From Escherichia phage vB_EcoM-Sa45lw, in the sequence record MK977694.1: 64,000 nt of DNA; one strand, given 5' to 3'. The position numbers were made by a program, and so were the translations under genes. This document shows positions 23,431 to 31,290 of the stretch, piece by piece. The stretch's first letter is position 1, and every line of letters starts with the position of its first letter. The notes under the pieces were generated by a model, which did no database searches, was not told the DNA's origin, and saw only the letters and a list, made by a program, of their open reading frames with translations.

Positions 23431-23484
23431 TCCTCATGTTATGTCAGTAAGACTACTATAACACAACACGAGGGACTTGTAAAC
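23431..23484 (-). promoter_or_regulatory. Early promoter plus SD; copy 1 of an exact 54-bp direct repeat
   Basis: Minus strand reads GTTTAC, 18-bp spacer, TGT-TATAGT extended -10, then GAGGA. Identical 54 bp occur at 39225-39278. Confidence 0.6.
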
Positions 23485-25541
23485 TACATTTTGAACTTTT
23501 TAGACATTCCGTTAATGTTAACCAAAGAAGCTAAGATTTGAGAAACTTCGTTTTCCTCTTCTTTTGATTCTTCTACAAGGAATTGATTAAATCCAGCCAT
23601 TGGACGAACTTCACCAGTTTCCATTAGATGGTCGCCATCATATACTGATTCTTCTAATTGTTCAGAAGGAGGAACGATTGTACCTTCGATTAGATACTTG
23701 TTATAAGCAGTTTCTTTCATAAAGTAAGTACTTACTTTATTAATCTTCAGTAAAATTCCACGTGGTAGAATAACTTCAGCTTCTGATGGAAATCCTGATA
23801 AATGACCCGGAACGATAACTTTAACTCGTTCAGCTCCTTTAATTACCATACCCACGCTAGTTTCAGCATCTTCATTAGCATATGTAGAATGACTACCCAT
23901 ATGCATCAAATCTTCTGCATCAACGGAACCTTCTCCTTCACCAGAAAATACTGCTCCGGAATCATCTAAGGCCATATAATTTTTACCATACTCACCAAAG
24001 ATATTTGGTTTAAGTGATGTAGATACGAAGTTCTTGAAATAGAACATTTTATTTTCAATGTTATGACGCAAAGTTTTAAAAGTAACTTCTTGTCCACGGT
24101 AAAGTGTAGTTCCTGGAGGAAGAACTGAACCTTTAGCAAACGCAGAATCCATAGTCTCGATGTGCTTAATAGCGCGCTCCATGTATTCTTCACGTGTAGA
24201 ATCAGGTTTACCTAAAAGGAATGAGTTCATTTCAACATACGAATCTGCACAATAATCTTCAATTACATCAGATTCAGCCTGAGTCAATCCTTTTGGAGTT
24301 ACTTCAGTGCTTGCATATTCATACGCCTGAGCAGCGGATTCATCAATTAATTTATAAATGCCATTCATGACAAATTGAATAATAGCTGTCTTTTCATCTG
24401 GCGTAGCTTTAGAACCTTTAACTAAATCATTGACAATTTTCTTAATAACATCAAAGCTATTAGAAATATTAATGTCAGCAAGATCGCTTAAAATTTTATC
24501 AGTTTTATAATCAAAGAATTCTTTATTCTTTAAATATTCTTGAGAACCTTGATATGTTATATCGCTCTGCAGCTTGATAGATGGATCACGTAAACGTGCA
24601 TGGGCTAATGCAATATGATTTCGGAAGCTTTCTAGTTCATAATCACTAGATTTAAAACGAGAAGCACTCCTCATACCACCGATAGCTCCTTTGCCGAAGT
24701 TTGAACCAATCTGAATAACGCCAGAGTTCATTGGTCCTTCTGCTTTATATACCGGAACTTTAGATTCAAACTCTTGATATTTCTTAGCAGCAAAGCTATC
24801 ACCCTGAAGTGAAGCATCAACAGTAGAATATTGAGCTTGTGCTGCTAATCGACGACTAATTTTAGTTTTCTGAATAACAGCTTGATCCGTACGCTTATCA
24901 TTTTCTAAAGCAATAGAAGCAGCAACTGCGACAGCTTTAGGAACAGCATTACCTGTTTTAACGTCTACATAAACATCACCGACTTTCGATTCAACTTTTG
25001 TGAATAACTCAGTTGAAATAGGAGGTACACCTGGAATGTCTTCTAAATTGGCATTTTTACGGTAAACCATAATATATGCATATTTCTTATCATAGTCCCA
25101 GATTTCCTTTAAAAGAACATATCGACCTGCTCCTTTAGTACGTACTAAACGGTCAGCAATAACTTGCATTTGACGAGCAGCGCCATTTGTTTTACTTTTT
25201 AGTACGCGGAATAGGCATGCATCAATTTTATACTGTTTCATTGTTTGAAGAGCAGTATCAAAAACCGCATTAATGACACCAATTGGATTTCCACCCAAGT
25301 TTTTAAGCTTAACTAACGATAATTTCTCATTAACACCTATCATTACGATATGCATCATTTTGTCGCCTGGCTTAACGTTTTTATTCGTATCACCGCCAGA
25401 GGTGTATGTACAAAATCGAAATCCAGGAAGAACGCTTTCTTCACCGGCTTGAATAGCAAAAATTTGAGGTATTTTATGCTTAGGATTTAAGTTAACAACC
25501 GGCGCCGAAGCGCCGTCAAATAATTCTGTAATAAGTTCCAT
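23484..25541 (-). CDS. Alt-family ADP-ribosyltransferase paralog, intact
   Basis: 685 aa; N-terminus MELITELFD... nearly identical to Alt over about 65 aa; C-terminal domain carries R (LYRGQ), STS (FVSTSL) and EAEVILPRG motifs. Confidence 0.85.
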   Translation of the reverse strand: MELITELFDGASAPVVNLNPKHKIPQIFAIQAGEESVLPGFRFCTYTSGGDTNKNVKPGDKMMHIVMIGVNEKLSLVKLKNLGGNPIGVINAVFDTALQTMKQYKIDACLFRVLKSKTNGAARQMQVIADRLVRTKGAGRYVLLKEIWDYDKKYAYIMVYRKNANLEDIPGVPPISTELFTKVESKVGDVYVDVKTGNAVPKAVAVAASIALENDKRTDQAVIQKTKISRRLAAQAQYSTVDASLQGDSFAAKKYQEFESKVPVYKAEGPMNSGVIQIGSNFGKGAIGGMRSASRFKSSDYELESFRNHIALAHARLRDPSIKLQSDITYQGSQEYLKNKEFFDYKTDKILSDLADINISNSFDVIKKIVNDLVKGSKATPDEKTAIIQFVMNGIYKLIDESAAQAYEYASTEVTPKGLTQAESDVIEDYCADSYVEMNSFLLGKPDSTREEYMERAIKHIETMDSAFAKGSVLPPGTTLYRGQEVTFKTLRHNIENKMFYFKNFVSTSLKPNIFGEYGKNYMALDDSGAVFSGEGEGSVDAEDLMHMGSHSTYANEDAETSVGMVIKGAERVKVIVPGHLSGFPSEAEVILPRGILLKINKVSTYFMKETAYNKYLIEGTIVPPSEQLEESVYDGDHLMETGEVRPMAGFNQFLVEESKEEENEVSQILASLVNINGMSKKFKM

Positions 25542-25544
25542 GAT

Positions 25545-27638
25545 TTATCCTTGAACGAACTTGTAAGGCATGTTTGTAATATCTATGCAAGACGCAATAA
25601 TTCCAAGAGATGATTCTACTTTCTGTTTAATATTTGATGAAACAAATGATGCAAAGTCAACTCTGTCTTCTATTTCAATATCACCTGTCATTGCAACCAA
25701 TTCACCAGTTTCCATTAAATGGTCTCCATCATAGATTACCGATTCGGTGAGCTCTTCCGTGGTCATAACTTCAGCTTGAATGAGTTTTGTATTATTAGAT
25801 GTTGTTCCGTCATTATTAGAAGCATCAGTTATTTTATTAACCTTGACCATCAATCCGCGTGGTAGAATAACTTCAGCTTCTGTTGCTATTCCGAGACTTC
25901 CTGGATATACAACATTAACTTTATGAGCTCCATCAATTGCCCATCCTATTTGAACTTTAACATATTCAGGATTTTCTTTATACGCTCTTATTTCGTTTGG
26001 ATTAATAGTTATTCCTTCTTCATTTTTATCAACTGTTAATTCGTTACGAGCTTCTGGTTCTAAAAGACCAATACCAGCATGTGTGATTCCAAAACGTCCA
26101 AAAATGATAGGAGTTAAAGAAGTAGATACAAAATTTCTGAAGTAGAACACTTTATTTTTAACTAACGCTTCATATATAGGAGCAGTCATACTTTGAGCAC
26201 GATAAACTGTAATGCCTTCTGGTATACGGTCACCATTTTCAAAAGCTGAATCTAAGTTATTTATAGCAGATTCAATTTCTTTTTCACTCATTACATCGTA
26301 TCGTTCTGGATTGTAACGACCTAAAAGAAGATTATTGATGTCAGTATATCCTGAACCGCAATATTCTCTAATGCCACGCTTTTGTGATGGAGTATATTTA
26401 GAACCATCGCGGGCAATAGTAATATCAATCATTGGACCAGCACCAATTCCAGAAAAACTGTAAATCATTCGTTTGAGGAATTTAGTTTTTGCTGCGTTCC
26501 AGGAATTTTTAGTTATTTCTTCCCAGACTTCATCTGGTTGTCCTTTACGATTTTTATTATGATTAGCAAGCCATTTATCTTTATAATCTTCAAAGAATTG
26601 ATTTACAGCTGCTGCGTATTTCTCTAAACATTTTATTGAAGTAGTTGGTTCATTTTTAATTGCATTAAAAATTACTTCTTTAATTTTTTCTGAAACTTCA
26701 CCGACTTGACTCATTGGAAAGAATTTATAATCATAGTGAAGTTCATCTGCCGTTCCTTCAGCAATAATTTTTGCTGCCTTTGTTTTAGAAGCTAATGAAT
26801 TAATTCCAATTTTCATTTCTTCTGCTTCGGGAATTAAAGGTGCAGTAGCTGGTTTATTAAAATTAGCTGCTGTAGATTCATACTTCTGGAATAATTCACT
26901 TTCAAATCTAGAAGATTCCAATGACTGACTTTGTGCAATTGCTCTACGGGAAATTTTAACTTTAACGATTACGGCTTGGTCAGAACGTTTATCATTTTCT
27001 TGTGCAATAGATGCAGCAATTGCCTCATTTTTGGTTACTTGAGCTCCAGTATCTTTATTGATATAAACATCACCGACCTTCGATTCAACTTTAGTAAAAA
27101 GCTCGGTGCTAATTTCTGGAACTCCTGGAATGTCTTCTAGTGATACATTTTTACGATGTATAAGAATATATGCATACTTTTTATCGTAATCCCAGAGTTC
27201 CTTAAGAAGGACGTATCTGCCACCTGAACGACTGCGGATGAGTCTATCAGCAATAAGTTGAATTTGTCGAGCTTGACCGGCGGTTTTAGACTTAAGAATA
27301 CGAAGCATGCAGGCATCAATTTTATATTGACGCATTGTTTGCATTGCAACAGTAAAAACTGAATTGATATAATTAATCGGGCTTGGACCAAGACCTTTTA
27401 ATTTAGCAATTGAACCTTTAGCAGTTAATGTAAAAGGAACAATGTGCATCATTTTATCGCCCATCTTTAAATCACGATTAGTATCACCTCCAGATGTATA
27501 GGTACATAAACGAAAGCCTGGTTGTTCAATTGCATCATCAACATGAACTGAAAAAATTTGTGGTATTTTCTTCTTTGGATTTAAGTTTGTAATCGGAAGA
27601 GTAGTATCTTCGTCAAATAATTCTGTAATAAGTTCCAT
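25545..27638 (-). CDS. alt: Alt, virion-packaged ADP-ribosyltransferase
   Basis: 697 aa; N-terminus MELITELFDEDTTLPITNL matches recalled T4 Alt; R (VYRAQ), STS and EAEVILPRG motifs. Confidence 0.93.
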   Translation of the reverse strand: MELITELFDEDTTLPITNLNPKKKIPQIFSVHVDDAIEQPGFRLCTYTSGGDTNRDLKMGDKMMHIVPFTLTAKGSIAKLKGLGPSPINYINSVFTVAMQTMRQYKIDACMLRILKSKTAGQARQIQLIADRLIRSRSGGRYVLLKELWDYDKKYAYILIHRKNVSLEDIPGVPEISTELFTKVESKVGDVYINKDTGAQVTKNEAIAASIAQENDKRSDQAVIVKVKISRRAIAQSQSLESSRFESELFQKYESTAANFNKPATAPLIPEAEEMKIGINSLASKTKAAKIIAEGTADELHYDYKFFPMSQVGEVSEKIKEVIFNAIKNEPTTSIKCLEKYAAAVNQFFEDYKDKWLANHNKNRKGQPDEVWEEITKNSWNAAKTKFLKRMIYSFSGIGAGPMIDITIARDGSKYTPSQKRGIREYCGSGYTDINNLLLGRYNPERYDVMSEKEIESAINNLDSAFENGDRIPEGITVYRAQSMTAPIYEALVKNKVFYFRNFVSTSLTPIIFGRFGITHAGIGLLEPEARNELTVDKNEEGITINPNEIRAYKENPEYVKVQIGWAIDGAHKVNVVYPGSLGIATEAEVILPRGLMVKVNKITDASNNDGTTSNNTKLIQAEVMTTEELTESVIYDGDHLMETGELVAMTGDIEIEDRVDFASFVSSNIKQKVESSLGIIASCIDITNMPYKFVQG

Positions 27639-27694: not shown

Positions 27695-27880
27695 TTAATA
27701 GAGAGCTAAAAGAGTACGATATACTTCAAACTTTGGACCTTTTTCATATGGATCAAATCTTTCCGTGAATTCATCATATGCTAGTTTATCTGGGAATTCA
27801 AGAATAACCTGCGATACCGCAGTGGAAACATCTCCACCTTCTTTTTGAGCCACGACAATTGTTTCTAAGTAAGCTTTCAT
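27695..27880 (-). CDS. Hypothetical small protein between gene 30 and alt
   Basis: 61-aa ORF, ATGA-coupled to the gene 30 stop. Confidence 0.55.
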   Translation of the reverse strand: MKAYLETIVVAQKEGGDVSTAVSQVILEFPDKLAYDEFTERFDPYEKGPKFEVYRTLLALY

Positions 27881-29340
27881 AAACCAGTTACCTCATGAAA
27901 ATCGCCAAATACATCTTCGAACGTATTAGCTTTAGTTTTATCTTCACGTAAACGAATTGCAATTGGAAGAAATAGCTTAACGTAATCAGTACGTCCATCT
28001 AATTTTACCCAGCCGTTGCATTCGCACTCTAGAATTTTTCCAATATAATAATTTTGGTTTTCCATAATGCGAGTACGATCAAGTTCATGCGATTTTATAC
28101 CGGCTTTATCTTTTAAGCCTGAACCAGCATTTACTTTAATTTTTCCACACTCTGATTCAAGAATGAAACCACCTGCTTTAGTAGGGTCTTTACGGTGAGG
28201 ATAAATTCCTACAATTTTTAAATCAACATCAATTACTTCTTTAAATTTATAAAGATTTTTTGAACGAGCATTTTCCCATAATCCATCGATATTTTTGAGA
28301 ATAATACCTTCAAGACCTTGGTCAATATACTTTTTATAAATTACCTTAGCTTCATCTAGGTTATTTACTATCTGGTTTTCAATTAAAATTACTTTATCAT
28401 AGCCTGATGTCATTTGTTCTAGTTTAGAAAAACGTACATCATATTTTAAACGAAATGCTGGAAGACCATATATTTCTACTAATGGAACATAGTCCCAGAC
28501 CTGAAACTTCATGCATTGTGCTTCTTTTTCAGAAATGGTTCCCTTTAAAGATTTATTAGCGATTCCATTAGAAGTAGTACGTGATTCAGCTACTTCGGCG
28601 AATTCTTTAGCTTTACTAATTTCAGGATAAGCATCAAAAAGAAAATCTAGGCCTTCTGGTTCCTTTTCAACTTGCTCATGGTATACCAATTCGCCATCAA
28701 TTAACACACCTTCTGGATGAATCTGGCGAGCTTCTGCAGTCATTTTGATTAACTCTTCCTTGAGAAGATCTAATCCTAGATATTCATTACCAGCTCGTGA
28801 TAAAAGACGAACATCATCTAATTCATCACCTCTGACTTCAGCAAAGCACCGAGCTCCATCAGCTTTTAACTGGGCAAAAGCTGGAAATTTGATATTCTTA
28901 TTAATGCCTTTTTCATCATAAGAACTTGCCAGCATTTGAGGTTGTTCAGGAATTAAACCTGGCCAAACTTTGTTTGCAATAGATACTGATGCACCACATT
29001 CAAGGTCTCGCATCATCACCCGACGCAAAACTTCAACATCATCTTTTTTACCGTCAGCAATATATCCAGTTAATTCCTCAATTGCCGCATTTCCGGTCAA
29101 TTTCCGAGTAGCTAACGTGAATTCAATGAAGTCAAGCATATCGGTAAGAGTCAACATTCCAAAACTCTGGGTAGTAATACCCGGTTTAGGCCATTTCTTG
29201 ATATAATACTGTAACCCACGAGAATAAGTCAGACGATATACTCGTTTAAGCAATTCATTATCTTTATTCTTTTCAAGAATTGCTTGCTTCTGCTTAGTTG
29301 AACCAATAGATGCTATTTCGTTCAGAATTTTAAGAATCAT
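27877..29340 (-). CDS. 30: ATP-dependent DNA ligase gp30
   Basis: 487 aa, T4 DNA ligase length; N-terminus MILKILNEIASIGSTKQKQAILEKNKDNELLKRVYRLTYSRGLQYYIKKWPKPG; adenylation lysine motif KADGAR. Confidence 0.97.
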   Translation of the reverse strand: MILKILNEIASIGSTKQKQAILEKNKDNELLKRVYRLTYSRGLQYYIKKWPKPGITTQSFGMLTLTDMLDFIEFTLATRKLTGNAAIEELTGYIADGKKDDVEVLRRVMMRDLECGASVSIANKVWPGLIPEQPQMLASSYDEKGINKNIKFPAFAQLKADGARCFAEVRGDELDDVRLLSRAGNEYLGLDLLKEELIKMTAEARQIHPEGVLIDGELVYHEQVEKEPEGLDFLFDAYPEISKAKEFAEVAESRTTSNGIANKSLKGTISEKEAQCMKFQVWDYVPLVEIYGLPAFRLKYDVRFSKLEQMTSGYDKVILIENQIVNNLDEAKVIYKKYIDQGLEGIILKNIDGLWENARSKNLYKFKEVIDVDLKIVGIYPHRKDPTKAGGFILESECGKIKVNAGSGLKDKAGIKSHELDRTRIMENQNYYIGKILECECNGWVKLDGRTDYVKLFLPIAIRLREDKTKANTFEDVFGDFHEVTGL

Positions 29341-29606
29341 TGTTCATCCTTTAGAGTTTGGTTTACAGCTCTATTATAAATCAATTCATCATTAAGCTCA
29401 GTCAAAGACCTGTGATACGTGGTTCTAACTTTATTTCCTTGCATCCAGTGCTTGACGTAAATGAAACCTTGCTCTACACATTTTTTAAAAATTCGTTCGT
29501 CTTTTTGAGCTCGGAATTCTGGATTGCATCTAAAAAATTGATTTACGTGACCGTAATCACGTGTAGTATTACCTTCATTTTCATAAATAGTGTGAACAAC
29601 AAACAT
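29337..29606 (-). CDS. Hypothetical protein (T4 30.1 position)
   Basis: 89-aa ORF, overlap-coupled to neighbours. Confidence 0.7.
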   Translation of the reverse strand: MFVVHTIYENEGNTTRDYGHVNQFFRCNPEFRAQKDERIFKKCVEQGFIYVKHWMQGNKVRTTYHRSLTELNDELIYNRAVNQTLKDEQ

Positions 29607-30442
29607 TAGAATGCTCCTTGGAAAATATTATCACCGCTAGTAGGTCTATTATACAAATACTCTATGCCACCAGGTTTAATATAGTTCCATGTCTGAAACG
29701 GATGCGTCTGATATGGATGATATAGATTATAAGGATTAAATCCAGGAGTTCTCCAGGTAGTGTTCCAAGGAAAAGAATCGTTTTTAATCATCTTTTCAAT
29801 TACATCTTTTATAGCTTTTTCACTATCAAAACTTTCTTTATTTTCCTTCGATGGAAAAAGCTTATTCTCTACATCATTCCATGTATAAACTCGCTGTGCA
29901 GTTTTTGGAATACTGTCACGCTCCCCTCGAGCCATCCAATAAACAGGAACATTTAATATTTCACTCGCGTGATCGCAGTGGTGAGCGAGATCGTCAATAT
30001 AACAAATTACGTTATATTTCTCTTTTGCCTTTTTGAACAACTCTTCTTTTGAAGAATCATGACCACACATCAATACTTCTGAGAAGGCACCAGGAAAAAG
30101 AGCATTCAAATTAAATTGACGATTCAGCAGAGCGTCAATAGAATCACCCAATGCTGTAACAGCTACAAAATTATAATCTTCTTTTAATTTGTTAATTACA
30201 CATAGAGCATCTTTATATGGAGACAAATAACGAATAAAATCTGAACGATTATACTTTTCGATTAATTTAACACCAAGTTCTTCATCGCAATTAAAGAGCT
30301 TACCAGGAGAAATAAATTTTTCGTCCTGAATCATTTTTAAAATATGTTCTAATGGAAGATTATATTTTTGGGCAAAATAAGGAAGACCTGATTGCCAGCT
30401 TAAACATACACCATCAATATCAGTCAAAATAGTAGGCTTCAT
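29606..30442 (-). CDS. HAD-superfamily-like hydrolase (T4 30.2 position)
   Basis: 278 aa; N-terminal ILTDIDGV fits HAD motif I (DxDG); later CYIDD fits an acidic motif IV. Confidence 0.65.
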   Translation of the reverse strand: MKPTILTDIDGVCLSWQSGLPYFAQKYNLPLEHILKMIQDEKFISPGKLFNCDEELGVKLIEKYNRSDFIRYLSPYKDALCVINKLKEDYNFVAVTALGDSIDALLNRQFNLNALFPGAFSEVLMCGHDSSKEELFKKAKEKYNVICYIDDLAHHCDHASEILNVPVYWMARGERDSIPKTAQRVYTWNDVENKLFPSKENKESFDSEKAIKDVIEKMIKNDSFPWNTTWRTPGFNPYNLYHPYQTHPFQTWNYIKPGGIEYLYNRPTSGDNIFQGAF

Positions 30443-30903
30443 AGAGAGTCTCTTAATAGGTTTAACACATCAATAAATTCAGCTTCGGTTAGTATTGTAT
30501 CATCTTTTGTTAGACCACTAGCCATGCTGTGCTTCAAAACTTTTCCTTTCGAGGCTTGTAATGCATCACGAAAGCCCTTGTTTTGGATCGCTGCTTCAAA
30601 ATATGCATTTGTGTATAATTCTTTCCACGCCGGGGAGTATCTTGAAAACGGAACTCCAAGCCAGAAGAGGGTCCCACGGTCCTGAGCTCTAGCATAAGAC
30701 CTTCCAGCTTGTTGGGCGGCAAGCCCGGATAACCCAAATATACGACGTTGTTGTTCAACATTTTTCACCTTGCATCCTTGGAGGAATCCTTCAAGACCTC
30801 CAAATTGAATACCATCCATAACGAAAGGCCATTGGGCGAAATTACTTAATGCACATGATGGCCACCTAAAATTGCTTCTAATCTCTAACTCAGACATTTT
30901 CAA
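30439..30903 (-). CDS. NADAR (YbiA/DUF1768-like) domain protein (T4 30.3 position)
   Basis: 154 aa; LSNFAQWPFVMDG resembles the E. coli YbiA core FSNFAAWPIKVDG. Confidence 0.75.
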   Translation of the reverse strand: MKMSELEIRSNFRWPSCALSNFAQWPFVMDGIQFGGLEGFLQGCKVKNVEQQRRIFGLSGLAAQQAGRSYARAQDRGTLFWLGVPFSRYSPAWKELYTNAYFEAAIQNKGFRDALQASKGKVLKHSMASGLTKDDTILTEAEFIDVLNLLRDSL

Positions 30904-31096
30904 TGCTTATAATTTCAACATCAGCCCAATGACCATAGCAAGGAAGACGAAATTCAACTGGCCAGTTAGGGTCCTTTTCTAATATAATAGACTCAACTCG
31001 TGGTTCTTCATGTTCATCAGTATATGGATTTTTATCTGTTACTTTATATGTGACCTTAATGTACTGAATTCCAAAAATCTTATTAATTATATTCAT
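30890..31096 (-). CDS. Hypothetical small protein
   Basis: 68-aa ORF in the tightly packed 30.x block. Confidence 0.6.
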   Translation of the reverse strand: MNIINKIFGIQYIKVTYKVTDKNPYTDEHEEPRVESIILEKDPNWPVEFRLPCYGHWADVEIISIENV

Positions 31097-31290
31097 ACTA
31101 ATTCCTTTAATCCGTAAATAGGAGATAATTCATCACCCATGCGAAGGTCTTCATTTCCATCTACCCAAGAAACAATATAAGCCTCTTTTATTTGAATACC
31201 ACTCCATTTAAATGGAGGTAGAACCTTAGAAATTAATCCAGGTATACCAACTCCCTTTAATTCAACAGTTTGACCTAAAAAGAATTTCAT
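31093..31290 (-). CDS. Hypothetical small protein
   Basis: 65-aa ORF, ATGA-coupled. Confidence 0.6.
   Translation of the reverse strand: MKFFLGQTVELKGVGIPGLISKVLPPFKWSGIQIKEAYIVSWVDGNEDLRMGDELSPIYGLKELV

Follow-up and report, generated by a model that had tools for sequence, protein, structure and literature searches.

A NADAR anti-DarT factor and a predicted nucleotidase-like HAD phosphatase encoded side by side near the DNA ligase gene of a T4-like phage

The 64,000-nucleotide stretch of Escherichia phage vB_EcoM-Sa45lw (MK977694.1) analyzed here, referred to as the window, is a segment of a Tequatrovirus (T4-like) genome in which an earlier note had singled out two adjoining open reading frames (ORFs) as encoding a HAD-like hydrolase and a NADAR-domain protein. 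Both ORFs were found on the minus strand, at the positions and with the motifs that had been reported, and represent genuine genes, namely 30.2 and 30.3. On present evidence they are most probably two separate early genes that share a transcript and no pathway, 30.3 encoding the anti-DarT1 NADAR enzyme AdfN and 30.2 an NT5C-like HAD phosphatase. That the ORFs did not arise by chance is evident from their matches to Pfam PF08010 (E = 2.3e-70) and to phrog_420, a family of unknown function (E = 7e-93), and from 95–99% DNA identity of positions 29300–31100 to hundreds of T4-like phages, with vB_EcoM_ASO78A (99.2%) as the best match. The two genes and their parts are as follows:

30439–30903, minus strand: 154-amino acid (aa) ORF as listed, called from an upstream TTG at 30903; contains LSNFAQWPFVMDG
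30439–30897, minus strand: gene 30.3 = adfN, 152-aa NADAR DNA ADP-ribosylglycohydrolase, as assigned by PF08010, T4 identity and model
29606–30442, minus strand: gene 30.2, 278-aa ORF; begins MKPTILTDIDGV
29783–30442, minus strand: catalytic part of gene 30.2 (aa 1–220), predicted C1-capped, NT5C-like HAD phosphatase domain
29606–29770, minus strand: C-terminal tail of gene 30.2 (aa 225–278 plus stop), predicted disordered, rich in aromatic residues and proline, lineage-variable
29639–29671, minus strand: conserved tail island GGIEYLYNRPT (gp30.2 aa 258–268)

Judged from sequence, translation of 30.3 almost certainly starts at the ATG at 30897 and not at the TTG at 30903, since the gene is annotated with 152 aa in phage RB51, and a product of this length can be aligned with T4 gp30.3 from one end to the other.

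The product of gene 30.3 is a NADAR enzyme by its fold, its catalytic residues and its near-identity to the characterized T4 protein, in agreement with the assignment made in the earlier note. It covers the complete PF08010 (Phage_30_3) model (positions 1–138 of 138; 235 bits, cut-off 36) and is identical to T4 gp30.3 (UniProt NADAR_BPT4) at 151 of 152 positions (99.3%), the sole difference being a conservative substitution (M125 here, I125 in T4). Both proteins have the same length, the same C-terminus with an intact C-terminal helix and the residues E36, K43 and H123, and in both phages the gene precedes 30.2, 30.1 and 30. In an alignment of 21 homologues, among them proteins of Caulobacter, Rhizobium, Ralstonia and Vibrio phages, E36 and H123 were invariant, and K43 was replaced with R in two sequences. 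The AlphaFold2 model (predicted local distance difference test, pLDDT, 84; predicted template-modelling score, pTM, 0.82) retrieved the three solved NADAR structures as top Foldseek matches in the PDB, namely YbiA (2b3w; E = 3.5e-4, template-modelling score 0.63), the G. lovleyi NADAR (8bat) and the Phytophthora NADAR (8bau), with no match below E = 3 beyond these. All three have the fold of gp30.3, and E36 and K43 align in sequence with their Glu and Lys counterparts in YbiA. Single-sequence searches of the PDB with gp30.3 or gp30.2 gave nothing significant, and family profiles were needed: the gp30.3 profile found E. coli YbiA as its best match (E = 0.018 over 55 residues), aligning SxEGFLQGxK with SEHYFQAQK. 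In profile searches, proposed in the earlier note as a check on both family assignments, PF08010 was matched directly and family profiles reached YbiA and the nucleotidase cdN; neither the Pfam NADAR family PF08719 (gp30.3, E ≤ 1) nor a curated HAD family was matched directly. As the phage group constitutes a Pfam family of its own, the missing PF08719 match does not argue against membership of gp30.3 in the NADAR superfamily.

The NADAR and anti-DarT role of gp30.3 is already known and published, such that the former statement on an unestablished function no longer applies to this gene; its UniProt name is Anti-DarT factor NADAR. The idea that the NADAR counters a DarT toxin agrees with what has been reported for T4 gp30.3, alias AdfN (PMC11825919, PMC11125620). 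Johannesman et al. (Nat Commun 2025, PMC11825919) traced the ability of T-even phages to resist DarTG1 to gene 30.3, which they renamed adfN, and found purified T4 AdfN to strip ADP-ribose off DarT1-modified DNA, being active alone in vitro. Activity was impaired by E36A, by K43A or by loss of the C-terminal helix, the latter occurring in the frameshift allele of RB69; T4 AdfN was inactive on thymidine-linked ADP-ribose (DarT2) and could not substitute for DarG1 in uninfected cells (PMC11825919). In vitro activity of the ‘T4 phage NADAR (gp30.3)’ was also found independently (Toxins 2024, PMC11125620), in a study which pointed out that phage NADARs carry His in the last strand where other NADARs have an acidic residue, Glu in YbiA and Asp in the DarT-associated proteins. 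The window protein has retained the phage-type H123 along with the full 152 aa. According to Iyer et al. 2022, the NADARs of T4-like phages are early genes expressed together with ADP-ribosyltransferases.

By analogy with the T4 protein, the window copy of AdfN is expected to be a guanine-DNA ADP-ribosylglycohydrolase with anti-DarTG1 activity. As a stand-alone NADAR, it would hydrolyze the N-glycosidic bond by which ADP-ribose is attached to guanine in DNA and thereby reverse the host DarT1 modification of phage DNA, enabling replication in DarTG1 hosts. NADARs of the DarG1 type differ from gp30.3 in having an N-terminal extension, which is absent here, and in their partnership with a toxin, whereas gp30.3 is encoded by an orphan gene. 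In some phages, the gene call joins a shortened piece of gp30.3 to sequence of 30.7, 30.8 or DUF2883, which hints at natural deletions by which certain T4-like phages have lost adfN activity, comparable to the known frameshift of RB69.

For gp30.2, motifs and predicted fold mark the protein as a HAD-superfamily phosphatase, in line with the earlier view of a HAD-like hydrolase. Across 32 aligned homologues, taken from phages that infect Escherichia, Klebsiella, Erwinia, Acinetobacter, Shewanella, Serratia and other hosts, the four HAD motifs, D8-I-D10-G-V (motif I), T96 (II), K132 (III) and D150-D151 (IV), show either invariance or a conservation of no less than 90%, with S instead of T96 in two of the homologues. 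D8, D10, K132 and D151 were still invariant or more than 90% conserved among 134 distant sequences of 21–47% identity. The AlphaFold2 model is confident for residues 1–220, which form a HAD core of the Rossmannoid type that carries a C1 cap behind motif I, and drops to pLDDT values below 50 in the tail. A DxD motif I combined with a DD motif IV marks a Mg2+-dependent phosphotransferase and not a dehalogenase, and C1-capped HADs generally take small substrates.

The family nearest to gp30.2 by sequence appears to be NT5C, the 5’(3’)-deoxyribonucleotidases (PF06941), represented by cdN/mdN (2jao, 2i7d, 1q92) and the bacterial protein 3bwv. NT5C provided the best PDB match by both profile and Foldseek, the profile search being headed by cdN 2jao (E = 0.017) with an alignment that spans motif I, W16 (opposite Phe) and the cap. 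Common to both are the helical C1 cap, motifs II–IV and a DxDGV motif I that is followed by an aromatic residue and SGL (MDGVLADFESGL in cdN, DIDGVCLSWQSGL in gp30.2). Unlike NT5C, gp30.2 has an extra, variable and disordered C-terminal tail as well as invariant residues of its own, for example R108 and N111. An exhaustive profile search yielded 1,461 representative relatives; in a Pfam scan of 133 relatives, 35 matched NT5C (best E = 4e-10), 14 Hydrolase and 11 HAD_2, and two distant relatives that were checked both scored above the NT5C gathering threshold. The link of gp30.2 to PF06941 is a transitive one, running through relatives only.

Because of the C1-cap architecture and the family-level sequence link to NT5C, our best reading is that of a small substrate, predicted to be a nucleoside monophosphate or a sugar phosphate and most likely a (deoxy)nucleoside monophosphate. 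The protein would act as a Mg2+-dependent HAD phosphomonoesterase, with D8 as the predicted nucleophile and D10 as acid/base, T96 and K132 binding the phosphate, D150-D151 binding the metal, and the helical C1 cap shutting over the active site. Both the substrate and the biological role are what we infer for this protein; a literature search for gp30.2 found no relevant paper. Two rare proteins, P0171 (591 aa) and P0235 (660 aa), end in a gp30.2-like HAD domain that is preceded by a long N-terminal region, which in P0171 includes a GDLDIIIED stretch reminiscent of Pol-beta-type nucleotidyltransferases; neither N-terminal region had a Pfam match or similarity to ligase. A search for Rosetta-stone fusions of gp30.2-like domains (P0171, P0235, P0124, P0162, P0106) revealed none with ligase or NADAR, and the extra regions were without Pfam match.

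The proposal that the HAD protein and the NADAR form a module for ADP-ribose processing or repair was not supported when the surroundings of the two genes were compared across phages. In the window, the neighboring genes are:

29337–29606, minus strand: gene 30.1 (DUF3045, 89 aa), between 30.2 and the ligase gene; PF11243, E = 2.9e-64, and RB51 annotation
27877–29340, minus strand: gene 30, ATP-dependent DNA ligase, 487 aa, with clamp-binding loop EPEGLDFLFD; RB51 annotation
23484–25541 and 25545–27638, minus strand: two tandem Alt-like ADP-ribosyltransferase genes of 685 and 697 aa, called as ORFs; RB51 annotates both as Alt-like

With T4 gene names, the RB51 annotation gives the minus-strand transcription order 30.4 > 30.3 > 30.2 > 30.1 > 30 (ligase) > alt.1 > alt > alt, and the window ORFs represent the same set. 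The pair of interest had been placed between ligase and Alt genes; instead, the ligase gene itself separates the pair from the two Alt genes. The tandem of Alt-like genes, as also present in RB51, matches the ADP-ribosyltransferase pair mentioned in the earlier note.

Linkage was counted in 79 gp30.3-type NADAR loci and 79 gp30.2 loci from IMG/VR. A gp30.2 gene was present within 10 kb in only 24 of the 79 gp30.3 loci, with the order 30.3, 30.2, ligase in all but one of the 24, and a broader HAD profile added only few distant matches more than 4 kb off. Conversely, gp30.3 occurred in only 35 of the 79 gp30.2 loci and never without ligase, whereas a DNA ligase gene was found within about 1.5 kb in 75 of them, downstream of 30.2 in 70 and upstream in five divergent loci (L170, L174, L176, L177, L178). 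As the order is swapped in these five, the linkage of gp30.2 to ligase survives rearrangement. Many T4-like genera have the two genes roughly 45–75 kb apart on one contig, as seen for the 30.2 and 30.3 loci of ten T4-like IMG/VR contigs common to the two lists. The Krischvirus Escherichia phage vB-Eco-KMB43 (OR525698.1), whose genome is complete, has no gp30.2 homologue anywhere but an intact 30.3 ORF (locus L020, 5001–5471; about 125388–125831), recognized by the family profile at E = 1e-60, followed directly by ligase and carrying no coding-sequence entry in the GenBank record. Gene 30.3 of Aeromonas phage 31 belongs to the tRNA region and lacks a gp30.2 gene within 5 kb, and the same 5-kb result was obtained for the 30.3-type NADARs of the non-T4 phages CcrColossus, Bambus, RL38J1, RSP15, a Desulfovibrio phage and Vibrio K45; non-T4 carriers include phages of Caulobacter, Brevundimonas, Rhizobium, Ralstonia and Desulfovibrio. 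On the basis of the linkage counts, KMB43 and the non-T4 phages, we consider ligase to be the conserved partner of gp30.2 and the NADAR to be a mobile neighbor, and a conserved NADAR–HAD pairing was rejected. The persistent linkage to DNA ligase would place gp30.2 in phage DNA or nucleotide metabolism.

A constant ligase neighbor raises the question of whether gp30.2 might work on DNA ends, for example as a 3’-phosphatase that cleans nicks as a partner of ligase and is tethered to the gp45 sliding clamp by its tail. The tail of about 55 aa varies between lineages and is missing in many homologues. Long-tailed homologues, including those of T4-type and RB69-like phages and of Klebsiella phage vB_KpnM_VPA32, have in common an island with the consensus G(T)GIEY[LW]xxQPT; the tail peptide bearing the motif of the window protein is IKPGGIEYLYNRPTSG. 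Compared residue by residue, its GGIEYLYN resembles EGLDFLFD of the neighboring ligase (aa 229–236; about 28633–28656, minus strand), which was identified by crystallography as a gp45 clamp-binding motif shared with the C-terminus of gp43 (Shi et al., NAR 2018, PMC6212786). The motif pattern occurred only three times among all window ORFs of at least 60 aa, one occurrence being the clamp-binding loop of ligase, yet the pattern had been defined post hoc, after both sequences had been seen. Moreover, when the tail motif was compared with the ligase loop of the same phage, no co-variation was apparent: the loop changes between LDFLF, LAFLF, LFSMF and LDDIF while GIEY[LW] in gp30.2 stays constant. 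For this reason, putative clamp binding by the tail is kept as a weak lead only. A DNA-end-cleaning function also has to contend with the many tailless homologues and with the C1 cap: such caps as a rule close over small substrates, and those DNA 3’-phosphatases of the HAD superfamily that are known have no cap. This holds for the Pnkp (PseT) 3’-phosphatase that T4 already possesses; this enzyme acts on polynucleotide ends, differs from the C1-capped gp30.2 in lacking a cap, and shows marginal sequence similarity to it (phrog_415, E = 0.004). Taken together, we regard the DNA-end phosphatase as improbable.

Searched with gp30.2 itself, Pfam and NCBIfam returned no model, HAD families included (E ≤ 1), and NT5C PF06941 remained below threshold. 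The lack of a match to any curated HAD model, along with a long disordered tail that suggests protein–protein interaction, would suit a protein that has the HAD fold but no catalytic activity and serves purely for structure or regulation. Retention of the HAD residues down to about 21–25% identity (D8, D10, K132 and D151 among the 134 sequences, T96 and D150 among the 32) speaks against this, as such conservation is the signature of purifying selection on catalysis, and we consider an inert protein very unlikely.

Three findings count against the separateness of the two genes. In the window, 30.3 and 30.2 are adjacent and translationally coupled through an ATGA overlap. In Vibrio phage QD01 (PV785814.1; locus L017, 5007–5961), a classical NT5C-type HAD of 169 aa (VYFDMDNVLVDFQSG) directly follows and overlaps 30.3; it is not a gp30.2 orthologue and adjoins genes 47/46 rather than ligase, and is thus a second, independent NADAR–nucleotidase adjacency. 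Finally, T4 AdfN reaches full activity in vivo only when T-even phages infect, and a further phage factor has been postulated by the authors (PMC11825919). Because of the ATGA coupling, the QD01 adjacency and the postulated factor, a functional link of low probability is kept in consideration: AdfN and gp30.2 could form one module in which the HAD phosphatase is the T-even factor that boosts AdfN, for instance by clearing the ADP-ribose set free, or products of its breakdown, or by stabilizing or localizing AdfN. It would fit with this idea that RB69, in which ectopic T4 AdfN works fully, belongs to a gp30.2-carrying lineage (loci L104–L106). However, adjacency of the two genes is not conserved, as detailed above, with many genera carrying them far apart, KMB43 keeping an intact 30.3 in the absence of 30.2, and the 30.3-type NADARs of Caulobacter, Brevundimonas, Rhizobium, Ralstonia and Desulfovibrio phages having no gp30.2 within 5 kb; purified AdfN needs no partner for its activity in vitro, and roughly a hundred other T4 genes are just as specific to T-even phages. 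We therefore judge a common module to be unlikely. A more specific version, in which gp30.2 as a nucleotidase-like HAD would be docked to the replisome via its tail motif and would clear ADP-ribose products or position AdfN on replicating phage DNA, is a long shot. Two separate genes, AdfN and an NT5C-like phosphatase, remain our preferred reading.

As to the wider locus, junction overlaps are also present at 30.2/30.1 (TAATG) and 30.1/30 (4 nt). A promoter and terminator scan of the region from 27.5 to 33 kb gave signals not above shuffled expectation, so no operon boundaries were drawn from it. Searches with tblastn found homologues of 30.3 in 1510 and of 30.2 in 1452 phage records, with similar host distributions. 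Some GenBank records name gp30.2 ‘haloacid dehalogenase-like hydrolase’ or ‘putative phosphatase’ and its neighbor ‘NADAR domain containing protein’. The unrelated proteins gp30.2 (278 aa) and gp30.3 (152 aa) were found in one and the same protein cluster at 90% identity, probably an artefact that stems from a gene call which, somewhere in the collection, reads through the ATGA overlap and fuses the two.

The NADAR gene of the window represents a textbook-ready case of a lytic phage with an orphan antitoxin-like enzyme that undoes DNA ADP-ribosylation. Its neighbor 30.2, in turn, is present in about 1,450 phage genome records, nearly always near ligase, and counts among roughly 100 T4 genes of unassigned function. 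Remaining interest thus centers on the substrate of gp30.2, on its lasting linkage to DNA ligase, and on the possibility, small as it may be, that it is identical with the missing factor of AdfN.

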